Below are positions 4,763-33,332 of a stretch of 64,000 nt of DNA, one piece after another. Below the pieces are notes generated by a model. That model was not told the DNA's origin, did not search any database, and saw only the letters and a program-made list of their open reading frames with translations. Position numbers and translations under genes: made by a program. Location of the stretch: positions 1 to 64,000 of the forward strand of contig OZ244720.1 in assembly GCA_965219085.1 (NCBI GenBank), in the 5' to 3' direction. Each line of letters begins with the position of its first letter. Position 1 is the stretch's first letter. Source of the stretch: Dehalococcoidia bacterium. GTDB taxonomy: Bacteria > Chloroflexota > Dehalococcoidia > UBA2979.

Positions 4763-4811
4763 CAACGCGCCGCCCTGCTACCATGTCCGAGCTAAGGATC
4801 CGCCCGTGCGC
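4763..4811 (+). repeat. Diverged duplicate of the promoter/RBS/start of the gene at 5636
   Basis: caacgcgccgccctgctaccat..tccga..aagga.ccgcccgtgcgc matches 5593-5641. Confidence 0.9.
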
Positions 4812-4844
4812 GCAACGCCGCCGGGGCGCTGTCGAGGCCCGCGG

Positions 4845-5273
4845 TCATGCCGGAGCGCCAGCTTCCTCGCGGAACGGGTTGAGTACGGGGACACCCGTCG
4901 GCTCGAAGTGCCTCGTGTTGCGGGTGACGACGGTGAGGCCGTGTTCCAGCGCGGTCGCCGCAATCAGCAAATCCACGCTGTCGTGCCCGATGTCCCCGGA
5001 GAGCTGTGCCCACCGGCGAGCCGTGGCGATGTCGACCGGGAGCACCCGTTCCCCATACCAGGACATGACCCTGTCCAGCCAGCGAGCGAGCTCCTCGGCG
5101 AACGACGGGTCGCGCGTCCGCTGCCTGCGGATGCCGCGCTCGACTTCGCCGACGGAGACCACGCTCAGGTACAGGTCGGTCGTCCGCTGTGCCTCGAGCC
5201 AGCGCGTGACCCCAGGATTCCGCTCCCGTCTCCGCAGCGCCGACAGGACATCGGTGTCCAGCAGGAACATCAC
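4845..5273 (-). CDS. vapC: PIN-domain toxin, VapC family
   Basis: FLLDTDVLS, SVGEVERG, DLLIAATALEHGLTVVTRNTRHF. Confidence 0.93.
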   Translation of the reverse strand: MMFLLDTDVLSALRRRERNPGVTRWLEAQRTTDLYLSVVSVGEVERGIRRQRTRDPSFAEELARWLDRVMSWYGERVLPVDIATARRWAQLSGDIGHDSVDLLIAATALEHGLTVVTRNTRHFEPTGVPVLNPFREEAGAPA

Positions 5274-5524
5274 AGGTCCGCCTGGCGCTCCGGCAGAGGC
5301 AGGCGCTCGAATTCCTGGTCGTCCTGGGGCATGTCGAGCAGCAGCCGCGCGAGTGTCGGCGCTGTCGCGTCATCCAGGCGGCACAGCCGCTCGTACTCAT
5401 CCTCGGACAGCACGACCACAGCCGGACGTCCGCGACGCGTGACGTGCTGCGGCACGCCCGATAGTGCTGCGTCCACGACGGCGCTGAACCGGTTCTTCGC
5501 GTCTTGCAGTTGCCACTCGGTCAC
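5270..5524 (-). CDS. Phd/YefM-family antitoxin
   Basis: WQLQDAKNRFSAVVDAA...VTRRGRPAVVVLS; overlaps the toxin start. Confidence 0.93.
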   Translation of the reverse strand: MTEWQLQDAKNRFSAVVDAALSGVPQHVTRRGRPAVVVLSEDEYERLCRLDDATAPTLARLLLDMPQDDQEFERLPLPERQADL

Positions 5525-5533
5525 AGTCAGCTC

Positions 5534-5560
5534 CTAGCTAGACAGTCTGGCTAGAGTGTA
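5534..5560 (-). promoter_or_regulatory. TA operator palindrome and -10 box
   Basis: CTAGCTAGAC-A-GTCTGGCTAG inverted repeat at 5534-5554, adjacent to TACACT (minus strand) at 5555-5560. Confidence 0.7.
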
Positions 5561-5635
5561 CCGCTCCGGCGCACACGTTTGCATCGATGCCGCAACGCGC
5601 CGCCCTGCTACCATCCTCCGAGGAAGGAGCCGCCC

Positions 5636-6961
5636 GTGCGCCTGCTCTCCATCGGACGCGCCCTGCCCGACCGGCGGGTCGACAACCACTCGATCTTCAA
5701 CGCGCCCGCCCTCTTCGACTACGACGCCATCGCGATCGACCCGGAGGGCGTCTTCACCGCCATCCGTGAGCTCCTGGACGCCTCCGCCGACCACACCACC
5801 CACGCCGACACGCACGTCGTGAACGGCGGGGCGGGCGGCGGCGCCGCCGCGTCCGAGGTGCTGCGCCGCCGCCACGACGAGGTCGTGCGGGCGCTGGAGC
5901 GCGGCGCGCTCGTGATCGTCTTCGCGCATCCGCAGGCGATGATCACCGGCGTCGCCGGCTTCCCCGGGATCGACCGCTACTTCTTCCTGCCCGCCCCTCC
6001 CGGGCTCGCCTGGGACGCCGAGCTGATCCGCTGGGGCGAGGGCTCCGGCGTCGCCGTCTCCGACCACGCGCACCCCTTCGCTCGCTACGTCGACGCCGTG
6101 CGCGCCGACGTGCTGTACCGCGCGTGGTTCGAGGAGCGCGTGCGCGGCTTCGCCGACGCGGCGCACGTCTTCACGCGCAGCGCCGGCGGTGCGCCGGTGG
6201 GCGTCGAGTTCCGCGTGCTCGGGGGGTCGATCGTGTTCCTCCCCGCGCCGCGCAGCCGTGGCGGTGACGCCGGCCGCGCGCAGGCGACGGCCATCGTCGC
6301 GGCCGTCACGGAGCACCTCGGCCGTTCGCCCGGCGACCGCCCGCTCTGGGCGACTCGCGAGCCCGTGCCCGGCCTCGACGAGCGCGAGGCGGAGGTGGAG
6401 CGCGCCGGCGCGCTGGTCCAGCGCGCCGAGGAGCAGCGCGACGCAGCCGAGGCTGAGGCCGAGCCGCTGCGTCGCGTACGCGACGTGCTGTGGACCGAGG
6501 GCTCGCACGCGCTGCTGCCGGCCGCGCAGCGTTGCCTGGAACTGCTCGGGTTCGCCGTGCGTGAGGTCAACGACCTGCCGATGCTGCAGGCCGACGGCGC
6601 CCGCATCGAGCTTGAGGTCGAGGGCTCCGAGGCGACGGTCGGAATGGCCGCTCACTACCGCCTGCGGGCTCGCCTCGACGCACGCATCGAGAGCGAGGGG
6701 AGCGCGCCGCGCGGGCTGATCGTCGTCAACGGGGAGCGCATGCAGGCGCCCGACCGCCGCGAGGAGCCCCACACGGAGGCGCTGCGCGTCGCCGCCGAGG
6801 CGACCTCGTACGCGCTGCTGCCCGCGCCGGAACTGTTCAGCGCAGCCCGAGCCGCCCTCGCCGGCGCCGACGACGACACGCTCGCGTCGATCCGCGCGCG
6901 CCTCGCGGAGACCAACGGCCTCGTCGACCTGTCGAACCTGCTGGGCGAGGGCGCGTCGTAA
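5636..6961 (+). CDS. Hypothetical protein with central coiled coil
   Basis: Long ORF with host-like codon usage; GTG start after AAGGAG. Confidence 0.75.
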   Translation: MRLLSIGRALPDRRVDNHSIFNAPALFDYDAIAIDPEGVFTAIRELLDASADHTTHADTHVVNGGAGGGAAASEVLRRRHDEVVRALERGALVIVFAHPQAMITGVAGFPGIDRYFFLPAPPGLAWDAELIRWGEGSGVAVSDHAHPFARYVDAVRADVLYRAWFEERVRGFADAAHVFTRSAGGAPVGVEFRVLGGSIVFLPAPRSRGGDAGRAQATAIVAAVTEHLGRSPGDRPLWATREPVPGLDEREAEVERAGALVQRAEEQRDAAEAEAEPLRRVRDVLWTEGSHALLPAAQRCLELLGFAVREVNDLPMLQADGARIELEVEGSEATVGMAAHYRLRARLDARIESEGSAPRGLIVVNGERMQAPDRREEPHTEALRVAAEATSYALLPAPELFSAARAALAGADDDTLASIRARLAETNGLVDLSNLLGEGAS

Positions 6962-6985
6962 GCCGTCGACTCCCGCACTCGTCGA

Positions 6986-7026
6986 GCTACGCGAGCGTGC
7001 GGTGGATCTCCGTCGGCGCGTCGTAG
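6986..7026 (-). repeat. Duplicate of the fabV 3' end (YDAPTEIHRTLA*)
   Basis: 39/41 nt identical to 9062-9102; both differences are synonymous third positions. Confidence 0.92.
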
Positions 7027-7048
7027 CTGCTAAGCGTCTACAGCTTGG

Positions 7049-7813
7049 TTATTCTGGCCCGCTGTTCTCGGAGCGGCGCATCACGGTCGGTTCGACGTAT
7101 GCCGTCCAAACCAGCACTTCATCGATGAGTGCCTCAGTCTCCGTGCTGTCGTCCTCGTGGCCGAGCAAACGCCTGAAGTTAGCTGCAACAAGCAGAATCG
7201 CGCCTACAAGCCACATGAGGTGCTGCATGGCTTCTATGAGAAGGTCTCGTCGCTGGGTCGGACCCGTGGCCGGAGTGACTTCATCTGCATCCAAAGCCTC
7301 GATCGCGAATTCGAGGGCGTAGTCGGAGACGGCGTGACTGGACAGTGTGTTCTGGAGCCTCCTGATCTGCCGCAGGATGTCTTGATGAGCCTGGTCGTCG
7401 TCTAGGTCTTCGGCCATGTCCCCGTGATGCGGTCATGTGCCAGCCCCAAGGCCCCCAGGGACGCGCGCGCGTTCGCGAGTCTTGCGGAAGTCCCGAAAAT
7501 GATTGTGGGCCTCGTCTGGGCGGCCGATGCCCCACGTGACCGCCACGTAGCTCTCAAGAAGGAGCCGACCCAGATAAAGCGATAGCCACGGGTAGCCGGT
7601 AGCGAGAAGTCGGGATGATTGACGACCGGCAGTCAGCGATCGCTCAAGTGTCAGCAACATGAACGTCCAGCCATCGCTGGGCAGCTCGATCCCCCTAGCC
7701 GGCACGATCTCGGCTTCAATGCGATCTAGCAAGGCCTGAAGCAAATCGAAGGCGTAAGGATCGATCTCGCGGAGTCGGAACGCGGCGGCGAGTTCTTCGT
7801 CAGTCCAGTTCAT
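7049..7813 (-). pseudogene. Lower-GC hypothetical gene (possibly DUF5677-like) split by an in-frame TGA
   Basis: ORFs 7433-7813 and 7049-7417 are in the same frame, separated only by TGA at 7433-7435. Confidence 0.6.
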
Positions 7814-7834
7814 GCTCGACTCTCATAACCCTAA

Positions 7835-9010
7835 GGATGGTCTGAACAACTCGCCTGAGCGGGTGAGCAGATGCGATCATGGGGCGACCCGGAGAGGGGC
7901 GCCCCATGCAGCAGCGTTCGTTCGGCAGCGTCGAGTACGAGCACAAGAAGGTCAAGACGAGGCGGCAGGCGTTCCTCGAGCGCATGGACGGGCTCGTCCC
8001 CTGGGCTGAGCTGGAGCAGCGCATCGCGCCCGTCTACCCGAAGCGCGGCCGCGGACGCCGCCCCTACGCGCTGCGCGTGATGCTGCGCATCCACTGCCTG
8101 CAGCTCTGGTTCAACCTCAGCGACCCCGGCATGGAGCAGGAACTCTACGACTCCCGCTCGATGCTCGAGTTCGCCGGTCTCAGCCTCTCCGAGCCGATTC
8201 CCGATGAGACGACGATCCTGCATTTCCGCCACCTGCTGGAGCATCATCAGCTGGGAACGGAGCTGTTCGCGACGATCAACGCGCACCTGGCACGGCAGGG
8301 TCTGCAGGTGCGCGAGGGCACGATCGTGGACTCCACGATCATCAGCGCGCCGTCATCGACGAAGAACCGCGAGCGTGCGCGCGACCCCGAGATGCACCAG
8401 ACCAGAAAGGGCCGGCAGTGGTACTTCGGGATGAAGCTGCACACCGGCACGGATGCGCGGACGGGACTGGTCCACAGCGTGAGCACGACGGCGGCGAACG
8501 TCTCCGACGTGACCGAGGCGCATCGCCTCTTGCACGGCGGTGAGACGGAGGCGTGGGGCGACGCCGGCTACCAGGGAGTGGAGAAGCGCCCGGAGCACGC
8601 GGGGCCGGAGGTGAGCTGGCAGGTGGCGCTGCGCCCGGGTCTCAGGCGGCAGCTGGCGCCGGGGGGCGAGGAGGCGCAGGCGGAGCGGCGCAAGGCCTCG
8701 GTGCGCGCCAAGGCTGAGCATCCGTTTCTCTACGTGAAGCGGCACTTCGGGTACGCGAAGGTGCGCTACCGGGGTCTTGAGAAGAACCGCCAGCGTCTCA
8801 CGCTGCTGCTCGGCTTCACGAACCTGTTGCGAGCCGAGCCTCAACTCGCCTGATCACGGGAGCCGTGCGTCCGGAATCGCTCGTGCGGGCGATCCCGCAG
8901 CGGAATGGGAGCGGGATCGCCCCCTGAACCGCGGCATCGGCCCCCGCAGCGCGGCTCGGCACGCCGATCGGCCCGCACCGCGCCCGATACGCCACCTGTT
9001 CAGACCTTCC
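7835..9010 (+). mobile_element. IS5-family insertion sequence (~1.18 kb)
   Basis: Terminal IRs GGATGGTCTGAACA / TGTTCAGACCTTCC; flanks CTAA and CTAG (YTAR-type target). Confidence 0.92.
7907..8853 (+). CDS. IS5-family DDE transposase
   Basis: IVDSTII, WGDAGYQG, KAEHPF; RDPEMHQTRKGRQWYFGMKLH motif. Confidence 0.95.
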
Positions 9011-9062
9011 CTAGGGCAGCGCACGTCGGTACGGAGGTCGGGACAGGAGGCCTTCACGCCGG

Positions 9063-10265
9063 CTACGCGAGCGTGCGGTGGATTTCCGTGGGCGCGTCGT
9101 AGTCGATGCCGTCGACGGAAAAGCCGAAGAGCTGCTCGAAGTAGCGCTGGTAGCTCGCGAAGTCCGTGAGTGCGCCGAGCGATTCGGTCGTCACCTCGGC
9201 CCAGCGGCGGGCCACCTCGGCCTGCACGTCGTCGCGCATCTCGAGGTCGTCGAGGCGGATACGGCCCTCCTCGTCGGTGGACGGCGTCACGCCGGGACCG
9301 ACGTGATCGCGGAACATGCGCCCGATCTGCTCGATGGGGCCCTCGTGGGTGCCCTGCGCCTTCATCACGTCGAACAGCATGCTCATGTAGAGCGGGACGC
9401 CGGGGATGGCGGCCGATGCCTGCGTGACCACGGCCTTGTTGATGCTCACCCACGCCCCGCCGCTGCCCGCCGACAGCTCGGCGCGCAGGCCCGCGGCCGA
9501 CGCCTCGATATCCTCCTTGGCGCGGCCGATCGTGCCGTGGCGGTAGATGGCGTATGAGCCCTCGGGGCCGATGTAACTGAAGGCCACGGTGCGGGCGCCG
9601 TCGGCGAGCACGCCGCCGTCGCGCAGCGCCTCGACCCACAGCCGCCAGTCCTCGCCGCCCATCACCCGCACGGTCGAGGCGATCTCGTCCTCGTCGGCGG
9701 GTTCGATGTGCGCGTCGATGACCTCGCCGCGGCGTAGGTCGATGCTCTTCCCGGTGAACGTCTCGCCGATCGGCTTGAGGACGCTGCGCCACATCGTGTC
9801 GCTGTCGGGGTCCTGCCGCACGGGCGAGGCGAGGCTGTAGACGACGAGGTCGAGTTGCGCGCCGCGCGCCCGCAGGTAGTCGACGACCTGCTGCTTCACC
9901 TCGTGCGAGAAGGCGTCGCCGTTGATGGTGTGCAGCGCGCGGCCCTCGGCGGCGGCGAGGCGGTGCGCCTCGGCGAGGTTGTACCAGCCGGCCGAAGCCG
10001 TCTTGTCCTCCTCGGAGGGCCGTTCGAGGCAGACGCCGACGGTATCGGCGCCGTAGCCGAAGCACGCGCAGAGCGTGCTGGCGAGCCCGTAGCCGGTGCT
10101 CGACCCGACGACGAGGACGTGGCGGAGACCGTCGCCGCCCGCGGCGTCGCCGACCATGGAGCGTGCGACAGCGATCTGCTCGCGCACGTTGGCGGCGCAG
10201 CCGTCGGGGTGCGCGGTCAGCGAGATGAAGCCGCGGATGCGCGGCCGAACGACTTGCTCGGACAT
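9063..10265 (-). CDS. fabV: Trans-2-enoyl-CoA/ACP reductase FabV
   Basis: RGFISLTAHPDGC, GSSTGYGLAS, YSLASP, VMGGEDW, YxxxxxxxxK (YRHGTIGRAK). Confidence 0.93.
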   Translation of the reverse strand: MSEQVVRPRIRGFISLTAHPDGCAANVREQIAVARSMVGDAAGGDGLRHVLVVGSSTGYGLASTLCACFGYGADTVGVCLERPSEEDKTASAGWYNLAEAHRLAAAEGRALHTINGDAFSHEVKQQVVDYLRARGAQLDLVVYSLASPVRQDPDSDTMWRSVLKPIGETFTGKSIDLRRGEVIDAHIEPADEDEIASTVRVMGGEDWRLWVEALRDGGVLADGARTVAFSYIGPEGSYAIYRHGTIGRAKEDIEASAAGLRAELSAGSGGAWVSINKAVVTQASAAIPGVPLYMSMLFDVMKAQGTHEGPIEQIGRMFRDHVGPGVTPSTDEEGRIRLDDLEMRDDVQAEVARRWAEVTTESLGALTDFASYQRYFEQLFGFSVDGIDYDAPTEIHRTLA

Positions 10266-10329
10266 GGCGGGCCTCCTGCGCGTCGGGGTATCGTACGAGG
10301 GTGCGCCGGGGTGGGCGAGAGCGGGCGGG

Positions 10330-10731
10330 TCAGGAGTCGGGCGGCGTGAGGATCTCGCACGTTGGTCCGCTCGCGCGACTGAGCCGGCGGTCGAGGGTCA
10401 CGACCGGGCACCCGAGCCACTCGGCCAAGGCTATGTACCACGCGTCGTAACTCGTCACGTTGTGCCGGAGTTGCCACACGCGCTCGGCGAACGGCGCGAA
10501 CGAATGGAGCTCGACGTTGGCGTCGAGCACGTCGCCGTGTGCAATTGCAGCTTCCGCCGGCGTGATCTCGCCCGCGATCTCCATCCGCCGGAGGATGTTG
10601 CTGCATTCAGCCGGGAGCATCTGCGGCGCCACGAGCCGCTCGCCGGCGATCACGGATTCCGCCCAGAGCCCGTCAGCGTCCGCATGCATGATGGACGCAA
10701 GGAGTGCCGAGGCATCGACAACGACCGTCAC
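10330..10731 (-). CDS. vapC: PIN-domain toxin, VapC family
   Basis: VVVDASALL, YDAWYIALAEWLGCPVVTLDRRL. Confidence 0.92.
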   Translation of the reverse strand: MTVVVDASALLASIMHADADGLWAESVIAGERLVAPQMLPAECSNILRRMEIAGEITPAEAAIAHGDVLDANVELHSFAPFAERVWQLRHNVTSYDAWYIALAEWLGCPVVTLDRRLSRASGPTCEILTPPDS

Positions 10732-10964
10732 CTCTTATCGGCGTCTCGGTAGCGCAGGATGCTCTCGGTCGTCACCCGCGACGTCATGGCCGCCTTGTGA
10801 GCGCGAACCCCCTCGAGCCATTCGTCGATAGATGGCTTCGAGGCGAGATACTTCAATTCGGCGCGCAGGTATTCCTCCATCGACTGATGTTGGCGCGCTG
10901 CACGCGCTTTGAGGATGTCGCGCACCTCTTCGTCGACGTTGCGGATGGTGATCTGAACTCCCAT
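10728..10964 (-). CDS. FitA-like ribbon-helix-helix antitoxin
   Basis: MGVQITIRNVDEEVRDILKARAARQHQSMEEYLR; overlaps the toxin start. Confidence 0.88.
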   Translation of the reverse strand: MGVQITIRNVDEEVRDILKARAARQHQSMEEYLRAELKYLASKPSIDEWLEGVRAHKAAMTSRVTTESILRYRDADKR

Positions 10965-10998
10965 GACAGCAATATGCATGCGCAGACAGCATTCTGCA
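10965..10998 (-). promoter_or_regulatory. Probable antitoxin operator (two 14-bp direct repeats)
   Basis: GACAGCAATATGCA and GACAGCATTCTGCA at 20-bp spacing, directly upstream of the antitoxin ATG. Confidence 0.6.
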
Positions 10999-11038
10999 AG
11001 CAACGCCCTCGACGTGGCGACCGCCCCGGAGCTGGCCG

Positions 11039-12850: not shown

Positions 12851-12966
12851 GCGATCATCGTAGCCGTGCGTGAGGTCGAGTTGTACCGTGGGTTGGGAGA
12901 GACGGGACCGTGGGCGACGAGCTGGCCTTGGGGGTTCGCGCGAAGACGGCGATGTGAGGAGATCTG

Positions 12967-13851
12967 GTGCGCCGATTTGATCCCGGCACCGTGTTTATCT
13001 CGCACGCCTCGATCGATAGGGAGTTCGCGGGCCGCCTCGACGCTGATTTGCGTGGAGCTGGCTTCGAGACTTGGCTTGACCAACGTGACTTGCATGCTGG
13101 AGATCGGCTCACAGCCAGCCTCTCTGGAGCAATTGGTAGTGCCCGCGCAATGATCGCCGTGATTTCGCCGTCGACGCGTTCGGCTAGGTGGATGAGGCGA
13201 GAGCTTGAACAAGCCTCTCACCGGATGGTCGAAGATCACGAGTTCAAGGTAATTCCGGTGCTCATTGCGGACGCTGAAGTACCTGAGACCCTCCGAGATC
13301 TGGTCTATGCGGACTTCCGCACTGATTATGCGCTGGGCATGGACGCGGTACTGTCTTCACTACGCGAGCTCTTTAGGGACAATCGGTACTACAAGGACCG
13401 GGCCCGGCAAGATCGCATGACTGGCTATCTCCGCGAGGTCTTCGGAGGCTTCAGTTCCGCCATCGCTCTCGGAGGGTATGGCATTCCGGACCTAGACATA
13501 GTGCACGTAGCCCGTCCGGCCGGCGCACGCGTGCCAGAGTTCGACCCACCCGACGACCCGTGCGACGTGGCAGTCGAGATCGATCCGGGTGAAATCGACG
13601 CTCTTTGGATCGAGGGGTTCACATCGGCATGGGACCACTACGGGGCCCGAGCCGGGCTGCTGATCATAGACGAACCTCCCGCAACCACGTCTCTCGAACC
13701 AATTGCCGCCGGGGTCTTCGCCAACACGCGCTCGCGGTACGGGTTCATCTGCGCCGTCCTAGTCGAGCCTGAATCCCGCGACGGCGCGGCACGGGACAGG
13801 CTCGAGATTGCTCGTACCACCCTTCAGGAGCACATCTGGCCAGACCGCTAG
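12967..13851 (+). CDS. TIR-domain protein with uncharacterised C-terminal domain
   Basis: [33 protein letters not shown]; lower GC than flanks. Confidence 0.85.
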
Positions 13852-13901
13852 CGACGACTCAAGGCACGCGGGCTACCGAGACCTGCAACCTCGCGATGCA
13901 G

Positions 13902-13925
13902 CGAGGGCGGGTTGCCCCGCCCTCG
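13902..13925. terminator. Hairpin between convergent TIR and oppF genes
   Basis: CGAGGGCGGG-TTGC-CCCGCCCTCG. Confidence 0.6.
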
Positions 13926-13950
13926 TGGTTCGTGTTCGCGGACCCCGCCG

Positions 13951-14946
<996 letters not shown>

Positions 14947-15000
14947 GGCAGTCCCCTCGTCCCGTGCAACTTCGGCTCAGGCTTGTTCTCCGTGTCTTCG

Positions 15001-22009: not shown

Positions 22010-22044
22010 TACGTCTACAAGAAGTCCCTGCCGAGAAGCGGCGT

Positions 22045-22770: not shown

Positions 22771-22880
22771 TCGGAGTCTCCTTCAATGCGCCGCCGCGCG
22801 CCGGCAGCTCGATGAGCATTGGTCTCGCGAAGACTACAGGGGCGAGGCGATAGGCGGGCGGGGAACTCGGCCCGGCAGCC

Positions 22881-25196
22881 CTACTCGTTGGGCGCCGCGT
22901 CTGCGCCAACATCGGGGGCGACATCGGAGGCGACCGCGGGGGCCACGGCGGGAGACGGCGTCGGGGGCCGCGCGACCACGGACGTGCCGGCCGGGATGCC
23001 GTTCGGGAACAGCGCCACGAACCGCTCGTTCACGAGAGCTGGGGCGCCCAGGATGTAGGACACGTAGGCGTCGCCGTCCCAGGCGTAGACGGCCGTCACG
23101 GAGAGGCGGCGCGCGCACGCCTCCAGCGCGCCGATGCCGCCACCCTCGTATGTCACGAGGCGGAAGTCGTCGGCGAGGCCGTCCAGGCACTCGCGCACCT
23201 CGATCAGCACGCGGTACTCCCGTTTCCGGGCGCCGTCCTCCGAGGTCACCGTGACGGTGACCTCGGTACCGGCGTCTACCGCCGCCTGGTGGCCGTTCTC
23301 CAGGTCGCCGTCCACGTCGGTGGGCACGATGGCGACCGTTGCGCCGTCCTGGACTGGCAAGGCCTCGATGACGGTCTTGCCCGCACCCCCGGAAAGGATG
23401 CCCGTGTACTCCGGCCGGTCGGGTGAGAACTCGCCGATATCGATATGGGTGAGCGTCAGCGAGGCGAGCCGGGCGTCGATGCCGTCGGGCATGTTGTAGC
23501 TGTAGACCTTGTCATCGTTGGCGTCCGCGACGTACATCACACTGCCGCCAGACCAGATGCCGCGCGGGCTGTTGTTGCCCGCGCCCCGGAGCGTCGTGAA
23601 GTCCTCGTCGCCAACCCGCACCAGCTCCGCGCCCTCGAGGCGGTACGCGAGGAGCTTCCGCTCCTGACCGTCCGAGACCCACACGCCGACACGATCGGAC
23701 CAGATGCCGTGCGGATCGCGATTGGAGGCGCCGAGGTCGTACGCGGCAGCGACCTCTCCGGTGTCGAGGTCGTACACGTAGACGCTGTCATCGACCCCGT
23801 CGAGCACCCACATCGCCTCGTCGTCGGACCAGATGCCTCTCGCGCCGACGTTGCCGCGAGCCAGTTCGATCTCGCGCTCTGGAAGGCGTGTACCGCTTGT
23901 GAGGTCGTAGGCGAAGAGTCGGTTCTTGCCGCTGTCGGCGACCCACATCACGCTGCCGTCCGACCACAGGCCTCGAGGGGCGCGGTTGGCATCGTCGAGC
24001 GCGATGTCACGGTCCTCGGCGCGTTCGCCGGTGGCAAGGTCGTACGCGTAGACGCTGTCGCCGACGCCGTCGCTGTTCTGCGCGACCCACAACGTCTCGC
24101 CATCGGACCACAGCCCGGTAGCCGCGTCGTTCGCCTCGGCGAGCGGATCGATGTCGCGCTCGACGTTCCAGCCGAAGCCGGCCTCGGTACCCGCCGGTGC
24201 ACGCGGTGTAGGCGCGATGGAGAACACGGGAGCGCTCGGGACGTTGGTGTTCACGGGATTGATGCCGGGCGGGCTGTCGGCGTTCCGCGCTGGGAGCACG
24301 TCGAACTCATATTGGTAGAGGGGCGCTACCCCCTGCGTCTCGTGCCGAAGGAGGAAGACAGCCGGGCCCGGCTCGCAGGCGACGACCCAGAGGGTTTGAT
24401 GGATCGCGCGCCGCCAGTTCTGCAGGTGACGCTCCCCACTACAGGCTTCAAGGGCGTCGCCCGGCGGAGTGTCGAGTCCCCCGACGCCATGAAAGGAGCC
24501 GGTCTGCGAGCTGTTCAGGTAGACGTTCAGGTGGTCCTCGGGATACCTCGGGATGGAACTGCGGAAGCGGAACCTGCGCCACTCTCCCACGTGCATCGGG
24601 GAAGCTCGAGGATCCGGATCCATCCATGCAAGCGCGTCCGGTTCCGGAGGCGGGCCGTACTGGTCGTCGGCGGCCAGATACCTCGTGAGGAGGAAGGTCA
24701 GCCGAGTGGATGCCAGTGCGATCTTGTCCCCGGGGTTCAGCGTATCGGCCCTGGAGATGCTGACGTTCAACGTGTAGTCGTACGTCCCGAATCCCCCGGG
24801 GACGTACACGCACGTCTTGAACAGCCTGACCGTCAACACCTCCTCGCTCTCGTCCACGGGTACCGCGATGTCCGTGCCGGTGTCCTCGCCGTAGCAGTGG
24901 CTCGTCCGCGACTCATGCCCCGTCAGGTCGGCACGGAACGTGAGCTCCGAATAGCTGGCAGGGTCGAGGTTACTCAGGGTCACCTCGGCTGTGAGGGGGA
25001 CCGTGTTCGGCAGGTGGTCACCGGGCGACAGCTCGATGGAGATGGAGGGCGCCGCCTGCGCATGAGCGTCCAGCGACCCCTCGGCCACCACGATGACCAA
25101 TGCCGCGAACAGCGCCAAAGCACCAAAGCCGACGGCGGGCGGCGTTCGCTTCACCGATGCTCCCCGGAACCCTCGCGCGCCCGAGCGAGGCATCAC
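22881..25196 (-). CDS. Secreted protein A: variable N-terminus + GxWSDG beta-propeller + cadherin-like beta-sandwich
   Basis: Signal peptide; repeated GLWSDG/GIWSD..WV.D units; [18 protein letters not shown]...VTVTSEDG..Y. Confidence 0.75.
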   Translation of the reverse strand: MMPRSGARGFRGASVKRTPPAVGFGALALFAALVIVVAEGSLDAHAQAAPSISIELSPGDHLPNTVPLTAEVTLSNLDPASYSELTFRADLTGHESRTSHCYGEDTGTDIAVPVDESEEVLTVRLFKTCVYVPGGFGTYDYTLNVSISRADTLNPGDKIALASTRLTFLLTRYLAADDQYGPPPEPDALAWMDPDPRASPMHVGEWRRFRFRSSIPRYPEDHLNVYLNSSQTGSFHGVGGLDTPPGDALEACSGERHLQNWRRAIHQTLWVVACEPGPAVFLLRHETQGVAPLYQYEFDVLPARNADSPPGINPVNTNVPSAPVFSIAPTPRAPAGTEAGFGWNVERDIDPLAEANDAATGLWSDGETLWVAQNSDGVGDSVYAYDLATGERAEDRDIALDDANRAPRGLWSDGSVMWVADSGKNRLFAYDLTSGTRLPEREIELARGNVGARGIWSDDEAMWVLDGVDDSVYVYDLDTGEVAAAYDLGASNRDPHGIWSDRVGVWVSDGQERKLLAYRLEGAELVRVGDEDFTTLRGAGNNSPRGIWSGGSVMYVADANDDKVYSYNMPDGIDARLASLTLTHIDIGEFSPDRPEYTGILSGGAGKTVIEALPVQDGATVAIVPTDVDGDLENGHQAAVDAGTEVTVTVTSEDGARKREYRVLIEVRECLDGLADDFRLVTYEGGGIGALEACARRLSVTAVYAWDGDAYVSYILGAPALVNERFVALFPNGIPAGTSVVARPPTPSPAVAPAVASDVAPDVGADAAPNE

Positions 25197-25384
25197 GCGA
25201 CTTGATGCTGGGTCTGATCACCTTCGGAATATATGTCCATGACATACGGGATGTGGCGTGCGATCAAGGACGGAGGGCAACATGGGCGAGCCGGGCGAAC
25301 GCCCAGCTCCCGCTTACGATCACTCGATAGGAGTTCGCTCCGCTCGCCGGCCGGCCCGATCACGACTTGAGTGGGGCTCGTCAT

Positions 25385-25972
25385 GTCAGGCCCGAATCTC
25401 CGCGCCGAGCTCGCGCGCGAGGCGATTCACGAGGCGGCCCTGCTCGCGGTTCGCGTCCTCGGTGGTGAGGGTGCGGTCGAGCGCCTGGTAGCGGATCGCG
25501 AAGGCGATCGACTTCTTGCCCGCGGGTAGCTGCTCGCCGCGGTAGACGTCGAACACGCGCGCCTCGGCGACGAGCCGCGACTGCTCGATGCGCGACTACA
25601 ACTCGCCGGCCGCGACGTCCTCGTCGACGACGAGCGCGAGGTCCTGCTCGACCGCCGGGAAGCGCGGCACCGGCGCCGCGCCGCGACGCTCGGGCATCGC
25701 GTCCAGCAGGGCCGCGAGGTCCAGCTCGAAGAGCGCGACCGGCCGGTCGACGCCGAACGCCTCGAGGGTGTCGGGATGCACCTCGCCCAGCACGCCGACG
25801 GGCGTCCCGCCCACGCTGAGGCGCGCGCTGCGCCCGGCCTGCAGGCCGTGCTCCTCGTGCGGGGCGTACTCGAGGTAGTCCGCGAGCGGCCGGCCGACGG
25901 GCGCGTCGGCGGGCAGTTCGAGGATGCCTTCGTGTGCTTCGGAGAGCCCGAGCTCGCGCTCGGACAGTACCA
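25385..25972 (-). pseudogene. pheT: Displaced, internally deleted pheT duplicate
   Basis: 25385-25869 matches 28671-29154 and 25871-25972 matches 30638-30739; CAG>TAG at 25596-25598; different final codons (EIRA* vs EQRV*). Confidence 0.9.
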
Positions 25973-28571
25973 GGCGGGCGGGCAACTCGGCGCGGCGGCC
26001 CTCCTCGTTAGGCCCTGCGTCGGCGGCGACATCGGGGGCGACAGCGGGGGCCACGCCGGGAGGCGGCGTCGGGCGCCGCGCCACCACGGACGTGCCGGCC
26101 GGGATCCCGTCGGGGAACAGTGCGACGAAGCGCTCGTTGACGAACGCCGGGGCGTCGAGGATGTACGACACGTAGACGTTGCCGTCCCAGGCGTAGACGG
26201 CCGTCACCGAGAGGCTGCGCGCGCACGCCTCCAGCGCGCCGATGCCGCCACCCTCGTATGTCACGAGGCGGAAATCGTGAGCGAGGCCGTCCAGGCACTC
26301 GCGCACCTCGATCAGCACGCGGTACTCCCGTTTCCGGGCGCCGTCCTCCGAGGTCACCGTGACGGTGACCTCGGTACCGGCGTCTACCGCCGCCTGGTGG
26401 CCGTTCTCCAGGTCGCCGTCCACGTCGGTGGGCACGATTGCAACCATCGCGCCGGGCTGGGCTGCCGAGGCTTCGATGACGGTCTTGCCCGCACCCCCGG
26501 AAAGGATGCCCGTGTACTCCGGCCGGTCGGGTGAGAACTCGCCGATATCGATATGGGTGAGCGTCAACGACGCGAGTCGCGCGTCGATGCCGTCGGGCAT
26601 GTTGTAGCTGTAGACCTTGTCATCGTTGGCGTCCGCGACGTACATCACACTGCCGCCAGACCAGATGCCGCGCGGGCTGTTGTTGCCCGCGCCCAGGAGC
26701 GTCGTGAAGTCCTCGTCGCCGACCCGCACCAGCTCCGCGCCCTCGAGGCGATACGCGAGGAGCTTCCGCTCCTGACCGTCCGAGACCCACACGCCGACGC
26801 CGTCCGACCAGATGCCGTGCGGGTCGCCGTTGTCGGAGTCGAGCTCGTAGACGGCCGTCTGCTCGCCACTCCCGAGGTCGTAGAGATAGACGCTCTCGTC
26901 ACTGCCGTCGAGCACCCACATCGTCGTCCGATCGGACCAGATGCCGCGCGGGTCGTCGTTCGCATCGCTGAGGTTGATGTCACGCGCCTGGAGGCGCTCG
27001 CCGCTCTCCAGGCTGTAGGCGAAGAGGCGTTCGCGGCCGCTGTCAGAGACCCAGATCGTCTCGCCGTTGGACCAGAGGCCGCGCGGGGCGAGGTTCGTCT
27101 TGTCCAACTCGAAGTCGCGCTCCTCGGCGCGCTCCCCACTCGCGAGATCGTAGGCGAAGACGCCGTCGTTGTTCAGCGCGACCCACAACGTCTCACCGTC
27201 CGACCACAGCCCCGTGGCGCCGTCGCTGCGGGGGTCCAGCTCGGCGATGTCCTGACTGACAGTCCACGCGAAGTCGGCGTCACTCGGGGTGGGGCCGGCC
27301 CCGCTGGCGGGGCAGACGCTCGGCGGCGGGTGGATCGGTGGCTCTGTCGTGGCGCTGGCTACGATCCGCAGTATCCGGTCCGTGCCGCCGCCGTTCGAGG
27401 TGGACACGTAGAGGGCGCAGTCGGGGCCGAGCATCGGGGTCCGGAGCCGACCGTACGTGCGATCGAGCTCGGATACGACAACCTCACTCAGCAAGGCGCC
27501 GTCCGCTGCGAACTCGAAGAGCCGCAGCTTGCGATTCTTGAGGGTCGCGACCGCCAGTCGCCCCTCCCAGGCGCCCCACTGCTCGCCCTCGAGGAAGATG
27601 CCGCCGCTGGTTGCGCGCGTCGGATTGCCGGACGACCACTTGGCCTCGACGGCGTCGGGGAACTCCGCGAGGTCGGTCATGGGGACGCCCTCGTTGTAGC
27701 GCGGTACGGGGTTCCAGCCGTAGTTGCCGCCGGAGGTCAGCAGATTGATCTCGTCGTCTACCGAAGTGCCGTGCTCCACCGACCACATTTGACTCGTGCC
27801 GGGGCGCAGCGCGAGGCCCTGCACGTTGCGGTGGCCGTAGGTGTAGATCAGGGAGCCGAACGGGTTGCCCGGCGCCGCGGCGCCCGTCGATGCGTCGACG
27901 CGGAGCACCTTCCCGCCGAGCGAGGTCAGGTCCTGCGGCGTTGAGCCGCGCGCCGCGTCGCCGGTGGAGATCCACAGATAGCCCCGCGGTCCGAAGCGCA
28001 GCCGGCAGCCGCCGTGCCGGCCATTGCTAGCGGTGGGCAGCCCTCCGACGAGGGGATCGGCGACCCGGGTGGCCGAGGTGTACGCCGCGTCGATGGTCCA
28101 TGCGATGACCTGCACCTCGGGCCCGGCGTGGCCCTGGCACGTGTAGAAGCGCCGGTTCGAGGCAAAATCGGGATCGACGACGATGGCCATCAACCCCGTC
28201 TCGCCGTGGGCGAACAGGTCGGCGAGGTCGGCGCTGACGGTCTGCACCGTGCCGTCCGTGAGGCGCGCGCTCAGCACGCCGCGCCGCTGGGTGAAGAGCA
28301 TCGCGCCGTCCGGCGCGAAGGCGATGTCCCAGGGGATGTTCAACCCGGAGACGAACACCTCGACCGAGAGCGTCGGTGGGGAAGCCTCGCTCCCAACCGT
28401 GTTGCGGGCGGCCTCAACCGGCCCCGACTGCGAGGACTCGACGCGCGGAGTAGCGAGTGCGCCCCCCAACACGAGCCAGAGGAGCAGGCACAACAGCGCG
28501 CAGGCCGCCACAAGCGACAGCCTGGCCGCGAGCCGCGCCGCGATCGTGTCGTCTGCCATGGGCTCATCCAC
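25596..28571 (-). CDS. Secreted protein B: PQQ-dependent sugar (GSDH/Asd-like) dehydrogenase + same propeller/cadherin module, read through into pheT remnant
   Basis: [40 protein letters not shown]; stop of paralog A (TAG) is GAG here. Confidence 0.8.
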
Positions 28572-28670
28572 TCCCCGCGCACTGACTTGCGTGGAGGCCG
28601 GAGCGCGGACGCTCGCAACAGCACGCCGCCTTCGGCCGCCTCGCGTACGGTCGGGGCTCCCAACGGAAGC

Positions 28671-31115
28671 CTACACGCGCTGCTCCGCGCCGAGTTCGCG
28701 CGAGAGGCGGTTCACGAGGCGGCCCTGTTCGCGGTTCGCATCCTCGGTGGTGAGGGTGCGGTCGAGCGCCTGGTAGCGGATCGCGAAGGCGATCGACTTC
28801 TTGCCCGCGGGTAGCTGCTCGCCGCGGTAGACGTCGAACACGCGCGCCTCGGCGACGAGCCGCGACTGCTCAATGCGCGACTGCAACTCGCCGGCCGCGA
28901 CGTCCTCGTCGACGACAAGCGCGAGGTCCTGCTCGACGGCCGGGAAGCGCGGCACCGGCGCGGCGCCGCGACGCTCGGGCATCGCGGCCAGCAGCGCCGC
29001 GAGGTCCAGCTCGAACAGTGCGACCGGCCGCTCGACGCCGAATGCCTCGAGGGTGTCCGGCTGCACCTCGCCGAGCACGCCGACGGGCGTCCCGCCCACG
29101 CTGAGGCGCGCGCTGCGCCCGGCCTGCATGCCGTGCTCGTCGTGGGGGGCGTACGCGAAGTCGATCGCCAGCCGCTCCCCCAGCTCCTCGATCACGCCCT
29201 TCGCGTCGAAGAAGTCGAGGGGGCGGTCGAGCGGGCTGCCCCAGCGGTCGCGGTCGCCGCCGCAGAGCGCGCCGGTGACCACCTCGCGCTCATCGGGGAG
29301 CGGTCCGTCCTCGCCGCGTCGCGGCGCGTAGGCGCGCCCGATCTCGAAGATCGCGATCTCCTCGGCCCCGGCGCGTACGTTGCGGTCGACGACCTCGATC
29401 AGCGAGTGGCGCAGCGAAGTGCGCAACACCTCGTGGTCCGAGGACAGCGTGTTGCGCAGCCGCAGCGGCGGGTCCGCGTCCAGGTCCGCCGAGGGCTGCA
29501 CGCGGCGCAGCACCTCCTCGGTCGTCAGCGAGTAGCTGATCGTCTCCTGCAGCCCCGCCGCGGCGAGGGCGCGGCGCACGCCTTCGCGCAGCTCGTGCTC
29601 CGGCGCGGGCTCGTGCGGCGGGACGCGCCCGCGCACCGTGGTGGCCGGCAGCCGGTCGTAGCCGGCGATGCGCACGACCTCCTCGGCGAGGTCGTCGGCG
29701 ATGGCGATGTCGGTGCGCCACCACGGCGCGGTCACCTCGAAGCGCTCCGTGTCGTCCTCGCCCGCGGGCTCGACCTCGAAGCCGAGCGTGCCGAGGGCCG
29801 CCTCGACCTCGTCGTCTGGCACGTGGAAGCCGAGCACGGTGTCGAGGCGGTCACGGGTGAGCGTCACGCGCGCGTCGGGCTGCGGGCGCGGGTAGACGTC
29901 GACCATGCCGCGACGCGCGGTGCCCCCGCAGACCTCGACCAGCAACTGCGTCGCGCGGCGCGAGGCGCGGGCGGCGAGCTCGGGCGCCAGCCCGCGCTCG
30001 AAGCGTGACGACGCCTCGCTGCGCAGCCGCAGACGCGTCGAGGTGCGGCGGATGCTCGCCGGGTCGAACTGCGCGGCCTCGAGCAGCACCCGCGTGGTGC
30101 CCTCGTGCACCTCGCTGTCGAGGCCGCCCATGACGCCGGCGAGGGCGATCGGGCCGGTGTCGTCGGTGATCAGCAGCGTGTCGGCGGCCAGCTCCCGGTC
30201 CTCGCCGTCGAGGGTCGTCAGGCGCTCACCCTCGCGCGCGAGGCGCACGACGATCGTGCCGTGGATCTCGTCGGCGTCGAAGGCGTGGAGCGGGTTGCCG
30301 AGTTCGAGCATCACGTAGTTCGTGACGTCGACGACGTTGTTGATGGGGCGCTGCCCGGCGGCCCGCAGCCGCTCCTGCATCCACTGCGGCGAGGGCCCCA
30401 CGCGCACGCCCTCGACGACCGTGGCGGTGTAGCGCGCGCACAGGTCGGGGTCGTCGATGGCGACCGCCGCGGCGTCGTTCACGTCGGCGTCGCCCTCGGT
30501 GTACTCGCTGCCGTGCGGGCGCACGGTGTCGCCGGTGACAGGGGCGCCCGTGATGGCGGCGGTTTCGCGGGCGATGCCGACCATGTTCATCATGTCGGCG
30601 CGGTTCGGCCACGTGTGCACGTCGAGCACCACGTCGCCGAGGTAGTCGGCGAGCGGCCGCCCGACGGGCGCGTCGGCGGGCAGCTCGAGGATGCCCTCGT
30701 GCGCTTCGGAGAGCCCGAGCTCGCGCTCGGACAGCACCATCCCCGCCGACTCGACGCCGCGAATCGTCGCGGGCTTGAGCGTCGAGCGCTCGCCGTTACG
30801 GGGGTCGATGAGCTCGGCGCCTTCGCGCGCGAACGCGACACGCTGCCCGGCAGCGACGTTCGGCGCGCCGCAGACGACGGTGCGAGGCTCGCCCGCGCCG
30901 TACTCGACGGTCGCGAGCTTGAGGCGGTCGGCGTTGGGGTGCGGGCCGATCGAGATCACCTCGGCGACCGTGACGAGCTCGCGGTCCCAGTCGCCGATGC
31001 GCTCGATGCCCTCGACCTCGGCCGACGCCATCGTGAGCCGCTCGGCGAACGCGTCGACGTCGAGGTCGTCGGGGAGGTCGACGTAGTCGCGCAGCCACTT
31101 GAGGGAGACGAGCAT
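28671..31115 (-). CDS. pheT: Phenylalanyl-tRNA synthetase beta subunit
   Basis: MLVSLKWLRDYV, HPNADRL, VVCGAPN, PINNVVDVTNYVM, FDX-ACB C-terminus. Confidence 0.97.
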   Translation of the reverse strand: MLVSLKWLRDYVDLPDDLDVDAFAERLTMASAEVEGIERIGDWDRELVTVAEVISIGPHPNADRLKLATVEYGAGEPRTVVCGAPNVAAGQRVAFAREGAELIDPRNGERSTLKPATIRGVESAGMVLSERELGLSEAHEGILELPADAPVGRPLADYLGDVVLDVHTWPNRADMMNMVGIARETAAITGAPVTGDTVRPHGSEYTEGDADVNDAAAVAIDDPDLCARYTATVVEGVRVGPSPQWMQERLRAAGQRPINNVVDVTNYVMLELGNPLHAFDADEIHGTIVVRLAREGERLTTLDGEDRELAADTLLITDDTGPIALAGVMGGLDSEVHEGTTRVLLEAAQFDPASIRRTSTRLRLRSEASSRFERGLAPELAARASRRATQLLVEVCGGTARRGMVDVYPRPQPDARVTLTRDRLDTVLGFHVPDDEVEAALGTLGFEVEPAGEDDTERFEVTAPWWRTDIAIADDLAEEVVRIAGYDRLPATTVRGRVPPHEPAPEHELREGVRRALAAAGLQETISYSLTTEEVLRRVQPSADLDADPPLRLRNTLSSDHEVLRTSLRHSLIEVVDRNVRAGAEEIAIFEIGRAYAPRRGEDGPLPDEREVVTGALCGGDRDRWGSPLDRPLDFFDAKGVIEELGERLAIDFAYAPHDEHGMQAGRSARLSVGGTPVGVLGEVQPDTLEAFGVERPVALFELDLAALLAAMPERRGAAPVPRFPAVEQDLALVVDEDVAAGELQSRIEQSRLVAEARVFDVYRGEQLPAGKKSIAFAIRYQALDRTLTTEDANREQGRLVNRLSRELGAEQRV

Positions 31116-31141
31116 GTGCTTAAGCTCCGGTCAGACTCCGG

Positions 31142-31570
31142 CTAGAACTGGTCGATGAGGATGGAGTTGCCGTCGGGGTCCTCGAGGACGATGTGCGCGG
31201 GGCCCTCGTCCGCGTCGGCGGGCAGCGCCACCGCCGGGTCGTGCCCCTCGGGCATCTCGTGCAGCAGCTCGGTCTCGACGCCGCGCTCGGCGATACGGGC
31301 CTGCACGGCGCGCACGTCGGGGGGATTGAAGGTCAGGATGTTGCCCTCGAACATCCCTTCGAAGAGCCCGATGATCGCGCCGCCCTGGCCCATCATCATC
31401 CACCCCTCGCCGCCCCCGAGCGGCTCGAAGCCGAGCTGCTCATAGAACGCCTGCGAGACCGCGAGGTCGCTCACGGACAGGCTCACCGAGAAGTAGCCGA
31501 GGTTGGGGTCACCGGCCGGCGGCGGCTGGGGTGGTGTGACGTCGCCGCTTCCGGGCTCTGGGTCTGCCAT
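31142..31570 (-). CDS. VOC/glyoxalase-family protein
   Basis: FSVSLSVSDLAVSQAFYEQLGF, IGLFEGMFEGNILTFNP, DPDGNSILIDQ. Confidence 0.85.
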   Translation of the reverse strand: MADPEPGSGDVTPPQPPPAGDPNLGYFSVSLSVSDLAVSQAFYEQLGFEPLGGGEGWMMMGQGGAIIGLFEGMFEGNILTFNPPDVRAVQARIAERGVETELLHEMPEGHDPAVALPADADEGPAHIVLEDPDGNSILIDQF

Positions 31571-31572
31571 CG

Positions 31573-32631
31573 TCACACCCCCTGGAACTGGCGCAGGAAG
31601 CGCAAGTCGTTGGCGTAGAAGTTGCGGATGTCGTCGATGCCGTAGCGCAGCATCGCGATGCGCTCGACGCCCATGCCGGCGGCGAAGCCGGTGTAGCGCT
31701 CGGGGTCGACGCCGGCCTGTTCCAGCACCTCGGGATGCACCATCCCCGCGCCGAGGATCTCGAGCCACCCGCTGCCGCGGCAGACCGCGCACGACGGGTC
31801 GTCGCCGGGGCAGGCGAAGCAGTCCACGGCGACCTCGACGCCCGGCTCGACGAACGGGAAGTAGGAGTGGCGCAGCATCACGCGGCGCTCCGAGCCGAAG
31901 AGCTGGCGCGCGAACTCCCAGAGCGTGCCCTTGAGGTCGGCGAGCGAGACGCCCTCGTCGACGGCGAGCAGCTCGACCTGCGTCATCATCCACTCGTGGG
32001 TGGCGTCGGTCGCCTCGTAGCGGTAGCAGCGGCCCGGCACGGCGATGCGCACCGGCGGCTCGTGCTCGTCGAGGTAGCGAATCTGCATCGGCGAGGTGTG
32101 CGTGCGCAGCAGCAGCGGCTGGCGGCCGTCGACGTCCTCGTCGAGCCAGAACGTGTCCCACATGTCGCGCGCCGGGTGGTCCTCGGGGATGCGCAGGCGC
32201 GTGAAGTTGTAGTCGTCGAGCTCGACCTCGGGGCCCTCGATGGTGGCGAAGCCCATGCGCGTGAAGGCGTCGAGGATGTCGTGCAGGGTCTGCGTGACGG
32301 GATGGAGCCCGCCGCTGCGGCGACGCCGTCCCGGCAGGGTCACGTCGACGGCCCCGCTCGCGAGCGCGGCGGCGCGCGCCGCGGCCGTCAGCTCCTCGCG
32401 CCGCGCCTCGAGCGCCGCCTCGAGGTCGCGCTTGAGCTCGTTGGCCGCGCGCCCGGCCGCCCGACGCTCCTCGGCGGGCAGCCCGGAGAGCCCTCGGAGC
32501 ACGGCAGTCAGCGACCCCGACCGCCCCAGCGTGGCGACGCGCCACGCCTCGACGGCGTCCTCGTCGCCGGCCGCGGCGAGGGCGGCGCGTGCGTCACTGG
32601 CGAGGGCGTCGAGGTTGGGGGTGGGGGGCAT
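31573..32631 (-). CDS. pheS: Phenylalanyl-tRNA synthetase alpha subunit
   Basis: HPARDMWDTF, LRTHTSPMQ, YFPFVEP, GMGVERIAM. Confidence 0.97.
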   Translation of the reverse strand: MPPTPNLDALASDARAALAAAGDEDAVEAWRVATLGRSGSLTAVLRGLSGLPAEERRAAGRAANELKRDLEAALEARREELTAAARAAALASGAVDVTLPGRRRRSGGLHPVTQTLHDILDAFTRMGFATIEGPEVELDDYNFTRLRIPEDHPARDMWDTFWLDEDVDGRQPLLLRTHTSPMQIRYLDEHEPPVRIAVPGRCYRYEATDATHEWMMTQVELLAVDEGVSLADLKGTLWEFARQLFGSERRVMLRHSYFPFVEPGVEVAVDCFACPGDDPSCAVCRGSGWLEILGAGMVHPEVLEQAGVDPERYTGFAAGMGVERIAMLRYGIDDIRNFYANDLRFLRQFQGV

Positions 32632-32685
32632 GGGGGGAGTGTGGCGCGGGGGGCGGATGTGGGCAACGCGGCGCGCGCGGCCCGA

Positions 32686-32964
32686 TCAGTCCTCGTAGCG
32701 AAGTGAACTCGCGAGGCCCTCTGCGCCGGTCGGAGGCGGAATGGGCCGCCCCTGCTCGAGCTCCGACTCGATCCACAACGCCATGGCGTCTTCGATGTTC
32801 GAGGCGGCCTCGGCGGCCGTAGCACCGCCCGAGAAGCAGCCGGGGAACTCGAGGACCTGCGAGGAGTACGTGCCCTCGGGATCGCGGGTGACGATCAGCG
32901 TGTACGCGCTGCGCATGATCTCGCTCACACGCGGGTCCTGGACATCCGTCGGCGAACTAGTCAT
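32686..32964 (-). CDS. hicB: HicB-family antitoxin
   Basis: LEFPGCFSGGATAAEAASNIEDAMALWIE..GRPIP. Confidence 0.88.
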   Translation of the reverse strand: MTSSPTDVQDPRVSEIMRSAYTLIVTRDPEGTYSSQVLEFPGCFSGGATAAEAASNIEDAMALWIESELEQGRPIPPPTGAEGLASSLRYED

Positions 32965-33184
32965 CGCTACTCTCCTGCAACGCCTTGATGATATTCCGTG
33001 CGACGCCGGTTGTGAGCGTAACGGGGATGGTGAGCGTGCGGTACCCGGGCTTGACGAAGTGCATGTGCCCGCCTCGCGTCCGCCGATACACCCACCCGCA
33101 AGCCTCGGCGGCACGGGTGAGATCGCGGCTCCGGAGGTTGCCGACCCTCGCCCGCAGCGCCGCGAAGTCAACGGCCTCCGGCAC
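32957..33184 (-). CDS. hicA: HicA-family toxin
   Basis: GWVYRRTRGGHMHF..LTIP; upstream of and overlapping hicB. Confidence 0.82.
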   Translation of the reverse strand: MPEAVDFAALRARVGNLRSRDLTRAAEACGWVYRRTRGGHMHFVKPGYRTLTIPVTLTTGVARNIIKALQESSDD

Positions 33185-33216
33185 GCCGACACAATGTTAG
33201 TGCATCGAGCACCGGG

Positions 33217-33332
33217 CACGCCTCGTCGGCGACAGCGGCGAAGGCGGCGCGGGCATCACTGGCGAGGGCATCGAGGTTCGGGTTGGGGATCATGGGGGGA
33301 GTCTGGCGCGGGTGGCGGGTGTGGGCAATGCG
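33217..33332 (-). pseudogene. pheS: Diverged duplicate of pheS upstream region and first ~25 codons
   Basis: MIPNPNLDALASDARAAFAAVADEA vs MPPTPNLDALASDARAALAAAGDEDA; matches 32543-32670 including ~40 bp upstream. Confidence 0.88.

Follow-up and report, generated by a model that had tools for sequence, protein, structure and literature searches.

How does an accessory gene cassette come to lie between the intact end of a core gene and a second, displaced copy of that same end? The question is raised by the first 64 kb (hereafter the window, analysed over its whole length) of contig OZ244720.1 of a Dehalococcoidia bacterium (GenBank assembly GCA_965219085.1), whose genome (G000) consists of a single contig of 3,305,961 bases with 69.8% G+C. 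Between positions 4763 and 33332 of the window four cassettes are bracketed in this manner. We propose that such cassettes are added by homologous recombination on one side and illegitimate joining on the other, which we regard as the best reading of the data, with a probability of about one half. The loci are an unusually dense set of a known, mechanistically open kind of insertion, and one of them, at pheT, informs on the mechanism.

All four repeat pairs described in the initial annotation were returned by self-BLASTN of the whole window (E-values from 2e-9 to 0), and domains were assigned with Pfam. The direct repeats measure 41-587 nucleotides (nt), all of them above 30 bp, and the inserts 0.55-2.7 kb, that is, below 20 kb. 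No mobility gene was detected with Pfam in inserts 1, 3, and 4, and insert 2 carries an IS5 transposase. Homologues of restriction (R) and modification (M) genes are not the cargo in the window; the inserts consist of PIN/Phd, IS5 with an open reading frame (ORF) of unknown function, a GSDH/cadherin-like gene, and HicAB, the predicted toxin-antitoxin (TA) members among them scoring above the Pfam cut-offs (PIN 60.5 bits and Phd 55.3 bits; HicA 35.7 bits and HicB-like 40.6 bits).

The first pair (4763-4811 and 5593-5641, 90% identity over 50 nt) surrounds a minus-strand cassette at 4845-5524 with VapC (PIN, 4845-5273) and a Phd/YefM antitoxin (5270-5524). The intact plus-strand copy, also recognized in congeners, holds the leader, the ribosome-binding site, and the GTG start (5636) of a hypothetical gene (5636-6961), while the displaced plus-strand copy of this leader and gene start lies 2 nt past the stop of the upstream gene (2589-4760) and has a degraded ribosome-binding site. 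The repeat had been described as the 5' end of the hypothetical gene, which is correct for the first 6 nt of that gene; the rest is mostly a 43-nt intergenic leader. The second pair (6986-7026 and 9062-9102, 95% over 41 nt) involves fabV, which is intact on the minus strand at 9062-10265 (FabV match 9063-10265) and whose 3' terminus is the second repeat copy. The displaced copy, on the same strand, comprises the last 40 nt of fabV including the stop codon and 1 nt beyond, and the sequence between (7027-9061) carries a minus-strand ORF without a family match (7049-7417) and an IS5-family element at about 7822-9017 with its DDE transposase at 7879-8853. This element has 11 further genomic copies at 95-98% identity and is numerous in some congeners.

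The third pair is composite, one part linking 25398-25890 to 28683-29175 (94% over 493 nt) and a second linking 25871-25972 to 30638-30739 (94% over 102 nt). The two parts together represent a minus-strand remnant of pheT (pheT', 25386-25972), in which nt 377-478 of the gene are joined to about nt 1962-2445 through an internal deletion at a 6-7-nt microhomology, and which bears one premature stop. Protein B (25596-28571, minus strand), with GSDH and cadherin-like domains, is encoded between the remnant and the intact pheT (28671-31115, minus strand), its ORF running in frame into pheT'. The fourth pair (32559-32670 and 33221-33332, 87% over 112 nt) concerns pheS, intact on the minus strand at 31573-32631 and preceded by a 39-nt leader that extends to 32670. 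The displaced minus-strand copy (33221-33332) retains the leader and the first 73 nt of the gene, and HicA (32957-33184) and a HicB-like antitoxin (32686-32928) occupy the minus strand between the copies (32686-33219).

The most informative evidence on the origin of two such copies comes from pheT, whose differences were polarised by coordinates with 11 congeners. Ten changes are derived on the leftover copy, nine at codon position 3 and one a stop; twelve are derived on the intact copy (2, 2, and 8 at codon positions 1, 2, and 3, respectively), and 15 differences are polymorphic among the relatives. As the changes of the leftover copy fall almost only at third positions, in-place decay as a pseudogene would not account for it. 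Each copy also has the tail of a different clade: the leftover ends in GAEIRA-TGA, as in the five closest relatives (G018, G014, G007, G016, and G008; group 1), and the intact gene in GAEQRV-TAG, similar to the GAEQRA-TAG of a second clade (G017, G013, G012, G004, G015, and G009; group 2), the group-2 type being seen in its last ~21 nt. Several members of the second clade carry a B-like gene beside pheT, and the N-terminal part of protein B is 89% identical to the pheT neighbour in G017, pheT itself being 85.7% identical. The codon-position pattern and the tails of two clades thus suggest that B arrived with a foreign-type pheT terminus and that the remnant is the other allele, and they argue strongly for two alleles of different origin, from different strains, as the initial annotation had supposed for all four loci.

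At two or three of the short repeats an allelic origin is indicated less strongly. The leftover copy of a PIN/MazE locus elsewhere in the genome matches G018 at 58 of 61 positions, the intact copy at 50/61, and the copies match each other at 52/61; at a Fic locus the two copies correspond to two allele classes found among the relatives. Both differences at fabV are derived and synonymous in the intact copy. Genome-wide, unpolarised repeat differences number 36, 27, and 89 at codon positions 1, 2, and 3, with 41 further ones in non-coding sequence. The remaining short repeats resemble copies that have decayed neutrally, and to these we return below.

That the cassettes were added to sites previously lacking them is apparent from the 18 congeners searched for these loci. 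Locus 1 is empty in G014 and G007, where the upstream gene is followed by one repeat copy and then by the downstream gene, and locus 2 is empty in all five loci examined (G014, G007, G008, G003, and G006), the neighbour gene adjoining fabV with a single copy of its terminus. Beside pheT, DUF169 is the direct neighbour in 6 of 11 loci and a single B-like or A-like gene in the other 5, the double state with a remnant being found in none of these 11 loci. At pheS, G014 has HicAB and a second 5' copy of the gene (displaced coding part 98 nt, versus 73 nt here), and G007 and G016 have one copy without HicAB, with an upstream flank different from that of G000. Empty sites whose single target copy aligns to both repeats, as at loci 1 and 2 and at pheT, occur in congeners also at the Fic, HigBA, AAA_16, DndB, and PIN/MazE loci of the genome; at the DUF433/DUF5615 and MNT/HepT loci the relatives do not share the flanks, which leaves no empty site to compare.

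Another congener, L129 (1700-2690), has its own pheS 5' duplication, 198 nt long with 94% identity, around a different insert of 595 nt, the ORFs of which gave no match to Pfam families; this duplication is independent of the HicAB event and took place at the same site. In L028 (G000 1757912-1763267) a DndB set and a two-gene set adjoin each other between divergent genes, and each cassette is accompanied by a terminus duplication; neither is present in G018, and G014, G007, and G008 have the second only.

The initial annotation proposed a genome-wide search for gene-terminus duplicates flanking accessory genes, and such duplicates do recur. A chunked whole-genome self-BLAST, filtered for repeats of 35-250 nt with at least 84% identity, separated by 250-6000 nt and not both inside a single gene, yielded 56 direct versus 9 inverted loci; with repeats of up to 700 nt allowed, a copy lies on the outward-facing end of a gene no shorter than 300 nt in 34 of 60 direct loci. 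About 29 curated loci show the footprint, with repeats of 38-587 nt and inserts of 399-2698 nt; their cargo is for the most part of TA or defence type, and the G+C content of the insert lies below the genome mean in 25/29. One pair in the longer candidate list proved to consist of ordinary SSB paralogues and was dropped. A Pfam run on the 58 cargo ORFs of the curated loci identified five further TA pairs with named domains (PIN/Phd, HigB-like/HTH, FitA-like/PIN, PIN/MazE, and MNT/HepT) and three putative ones (DUF433/DUF5615, PIN/DUF6364, and DUF4258 with a small ORF), together with two Fic proteins, NYN, GIY-YIG, DndB, DUF3800, an AAA_16 ATPase, and insertion sequence (IS) elements of the IS21, IS5-like, and IS256 types. 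Repeat identity is 100% or 98.7-98.8% at some loci, and the copies are often 5-15% diverged. At L015 (G000 817620-820891) the 5' end of a gene is duplicated as direct repeats of 409 nt (98.8% identity) on either side of an IS21-type element (rve, IstB); the usual target duplications of IS elements are far shorter.

Duplicates are more frequent at PIN genes than at called genes overall: 5 of 42 PIN genes are bracketed by repeats of this kind, versus 59 of 2928 of all called genes. The footprint is enriched at PIN modules, yet it is a minority outcome there, and the duplication is not the consistent result that it had been taken to be. Two TA modules of the window itself stand without it: for a PIN gene with a FitA-like antitoxin between fabV and lepA (10330-10964; conserved in G007 and partly in G014) and for a MazE-like/PIN module just upstream of dprA (51501-52318), sensitive alignment found no flanking repeats, 39 and 38 of 200 shuffles, respectively, reaching the observed score.

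The same footprint has been in the literature since 2000, under the name of insertion with long target duplication, for units of restriction-modification genes (Nobusato et al. 2000, Gene 259:99, as cited; Furuta, Abe and Kobayashi 2010, PMC2853133). According to the sections of the 2010 paper devoted to them, these insertions have direct repeats of >30 bp to about 420 bp that can overlap the 3' end of a gene, carry no mobility genes, occur mostly in naturally competent species, and arise by an unknown mechanism (PMC2853133). The word "toxin" occurs 0 times in that paper, and the relevant portion of a 2013 review ascribes insertion with long target duplication only to restriction-modification systems (PMC3874152). 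The loci described here resemble them in being small units flanked by direct repeats that can overlap the 3' end of a gene, in that a related genome with the site uninterrupted has the repeat as a single copy, and in their "addictive" cargo; three of the four window loci, moreover, have no mobility gene, the fourth holding the IS5 transposase. They differ in what is carried, namely type II TA, Fic, NYN, DndB, and similar genes, surface-type proteins, and IS elements, and also in their number (about 29 in one genome), in the frequent 5-15% divergence of the repeats, and in the allelic divergence seen at pheT. No TA cassettes with this footprint were found in the literature searched, which did not include subscription journals.

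We propose the following sequence of events. An accessory cassette would arrive on DNA of a related strain, already situated beside the same core gene. Homologous recombination within that gene would anchor this DNA on one side, and at its far end an illegitimate join would form in or next to the resident copy of the gene's terminus. The core gene would remain whole and the cargo would be added, while a short leftover of the resident or donor terminus would stay behind as a direct repeat and then decay. Two filters may act on the products. Only short, diverged repeats would probably be stable against the recombination that loops the cargo out, and an addictive TA cargo may kill the cells that lose it; the bias in cargo may reflect both, loop-out resistance of the repeats and the penalty that addictive genes impose on loss. 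A circularised fragment integrating by a single crossover would give the same footprint. In Campbell-type insertion-duplication a circular molecule is integrated in this way, and the layout is identical, with an intact gene, the cargo, and a truncated gene copy as direct repeat; a circular intermediate is needed there, however, and none was observed here, and homologies of 38-50 nt are near the lower limit for RecA.

Apart from DprA (52361-53542), ComEC and Ku are also encoded in the genome, and therefore predicted routes for DNA entry and end joining exist. ComEC and DprA would indicate a capacity for transformation only, and DprA, which the initial annotation had brought forward in connection with natural transformation, is no specific sign of competence. 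The same annotation compared the loci to homology-facilitated illegitimate recombination (HFIR), a RecA-dependent process that, in the passage of PMC6382021 concerned with it (citing de Vries and Wackernagel 2002 and Meier and Wackernagel 2003), is characterized by junctions at 3-10 bp of microhomology. On the reading proposed, the loci would share with HFIR a single homologous anchor beside foreign DNA, an illegitimate join at the far end, and the lack of a site-specific enzyme; they differ in the one junction that could be read. The outcomes in the papers of 2002 and 2003 reportedly replace or delete recipient DNA and leave no duplicate. An anchor by homology with an illegitimate far end is demonstrated only in part; the pheT tail that lies beside B is of the other clade's allele type, the PIN/MazE and Fic loci show allele-class patterns, and the sliding windows described below show no clear tract.

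Several observations weigh against the mechanism proposed. At 25972, the only junction that is readable, where pheT' meets the B-side sequence, the microhomology is at most 1 nt, versus the 3-10 bp of HFIR (PMC6382021). In 10 short-repeat loci taken together, the changes derived on the leftover copy are spread evenly (6, 8, and 9 at codon positions 1, 2, and 3) and those on the intact copy are 3, 3, and 13; the even distribution is the prediction of neutral decay, and so an allelic origin is not required at these loci and copies identical at birth fit equally well. The intact copies nevertheless carry 19/42 of the resolved coding changes, a share exceeding the roughly 0.25-0.3 that we estimate for duplication in situ. 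Sliding-window identity of the intact genes of the Fic, PIN/MazE, and AAA_16 loci and of fabV against five relatives revealed no clear imported tract beside the cargo; the background divergence of 10-15% is too high. Homologues of the cassettes occur in relatives at other sites without the repeat, and no donor genome was found. Finally, 17 loci are of the 3' type (e.g., window 9062, G000 1073894 and 2316732), and in 12 of them the repeat boundary falls between -1 and +5 nt from the stop codon of the intact gene. No mechanism considered predicts this directly, and the one proposed here needs added assumptions, such as compact genomes and selection.

The main alternative is a true target duplication in break repair, in which fill-in at a staggered or resected break close to the end of a gene traps a loose DNA fragment, e.g., through end joining by Ku/LigD, the two copies being identical at birth. 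Ku is indeed encoded, the junction at 25972 has next to no microhomology, some repeats are still identical or nearly so, and the even leftover changes at the ten short loci, with the third-position bias confined to the intact copies, are as expected from it, as are cassette homologues at repeat-free sites. To our knowledge, however, many of the species reported with this footprint do not have Ku. A fill-in also cannot explain pheT, where 9 of the 10 leftover-derived changes are at position 3 and the tails are those of two clades, nor the leftover of the PIN/MazE locus, which is closer to G018 than to its own partner. We consider it clearly less likely than the mechanism proposed.

The initial annotation went further and suspected a biased or dedicated pathway by which alleles are added and a stock of defence and surface genes is built up. 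The high density of the loci (four in 29 kb of the window, about 29 in the genome) and the enrichment at PIN genes would favour it. There is, however, neither a sequence signal shared by the 29 loci nor an associated gene; 37 of the 42 PIN loci, as well as the two TA modules of the window mentioned above, are without repeats; the cargo is heterogeneous and includes IS elements; and the enrichment is explicable by selection and addiction. Such a pathway is therefore improbable.

Even less probable is site-specific integration by integrases that act in trans or have since been lost, the repeats being attL and attR attachment (att) sites. Integrating elements often carry a copy of the end of their target gene, and a XerC/D-like recombinase gene is present at 56375-57367. 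This is the nearest recombinase: apart from the IS5 transposase, Pfam detected no integrase or recombinase within 4763-33332. The cargo ends of the 29 loci have no motif in common and are not conserved, and their terminal inverted repeats are not above shuffled controls; of 27 repeats, 8 contain the commonest 7-mer and 6 the commonest 8-mer, within the range of random gene-terminus controls. Thus the repeat differs at each locus without a common core, as the earlier statement that there is neither a shared att-like motif nor an adjacent integrase had anticipated. Its length ranges over 38-587 nt and varies even at one site, pheS, with 112 nt here, more coding sequence in G014, and 198 nt in L129. 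The sole similarities between cargo ends of different loci are a trivial overlap of two adjacent loci and one stretch of 35 nt with 94% identity, common to the cargo ends next to the displaced copies of the unrelated L031 and L032 (G000 about 2159200 and 2199900).

An assembly artefact, in which strain variants of a metagenome are stitched in tandem, might be suspected as the lineage is known only from metagenome-assembled genomes (the PheS relatives are uncultured Dehalococcoidia, Chloroflexota) and other strains are visible in public runs, but it is scarcely credible given the single 3.3-Mb contig, the short-read contigs without any difference that bridge the whole of locus 4 and the A/pheT' and B/pheT borders, the same HicAB arrangement in G014 and the independent pheS duplication in L129, and the marks of decay (stop, deletion, lost ribosome-binding site) on leftover copies. 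The bridging contigs come from public runs that may include the source sample; they span 32408-34486 in X4 and X5 and 32408-34319 in X7 at the HicAB locus, 24759-25485 from protein A into pheT', and 28236-28770 from protein B into pheT, all with 0 differences. In a run of a second study, 23661-25440 is present with 32 differences, and no contig across the 25972 junction was among the matches listed.

Some features around the third and fourth loci deserve description in their own right. The cadherin-like protein A (22881-25196, minus strand) is paralogous to the C-terminal 1.28 kb of protein B, at 85% identity, and the closest relatives do not have it at this site. The part common to both proteins appears in the window as an extra repeat pair, 22852-24129 and 25972-27225 (85% over 1284 nt). 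Where A has a TAG stop, B has GAG, and its ORF continues in frame through ~135 residues of the pheT remnant, as far as the premature stop of the latter; a piece of the PheT CLM domain is recognized by Pfam at residues 900-952. The tail of protein B is possibly chimeric, made from the scar of the insertion. The region upstream of pheS is a variable spot, and the displaced pheS copy is adjoined by a plus-strand gene of the Hypoth_Ymh family (33459-34274) that has no counterpart beside pheS in the relatives examined. Farther downstream, a minus-strand gene for a 600-residue protein with a weak Baseplate_J-like match (43963-45765) separates ruvX from alaS in a part of the window that otherwise holds housekeeping genes.

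A wider interpretation, which we put forward as speculative and rather unlikely, is that the cassettes are mobile units free of recombinases. Addictive or defence genes would travel with a short part of the terminus of a core gene as a portable homology arm, integrate by host recombination beside that gene in any related strain, and restore the gene; the repeats would later allow excision as a circle, and the unit would be kept as its loss kills the cell. If true, this lifestyle would supply the mechanism so far missing for insertion with long target duplication, and it would be a general route by which defence islets form at the borders of core genes.

For 25 years the footprint has lacked a mechanism. 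The present genome contributes about 29 examples of differing age against a single background, and comparison with congeners adds empty, single-cargo, and double-cargo states; one large example, pheT, records the two copies as separate functional alleles. Whether a donor allele and its cargo enter by one-sided homology or the target is duplicated by fill-in is now testable on population data. With these loci the footprint is no longer confined to restriction-modification genes but takes in toxin-antitoxin and further defence-type cargo, and the extension to toxin-antitoxin genes fits the idea that addictive genes survive between direct repeats.

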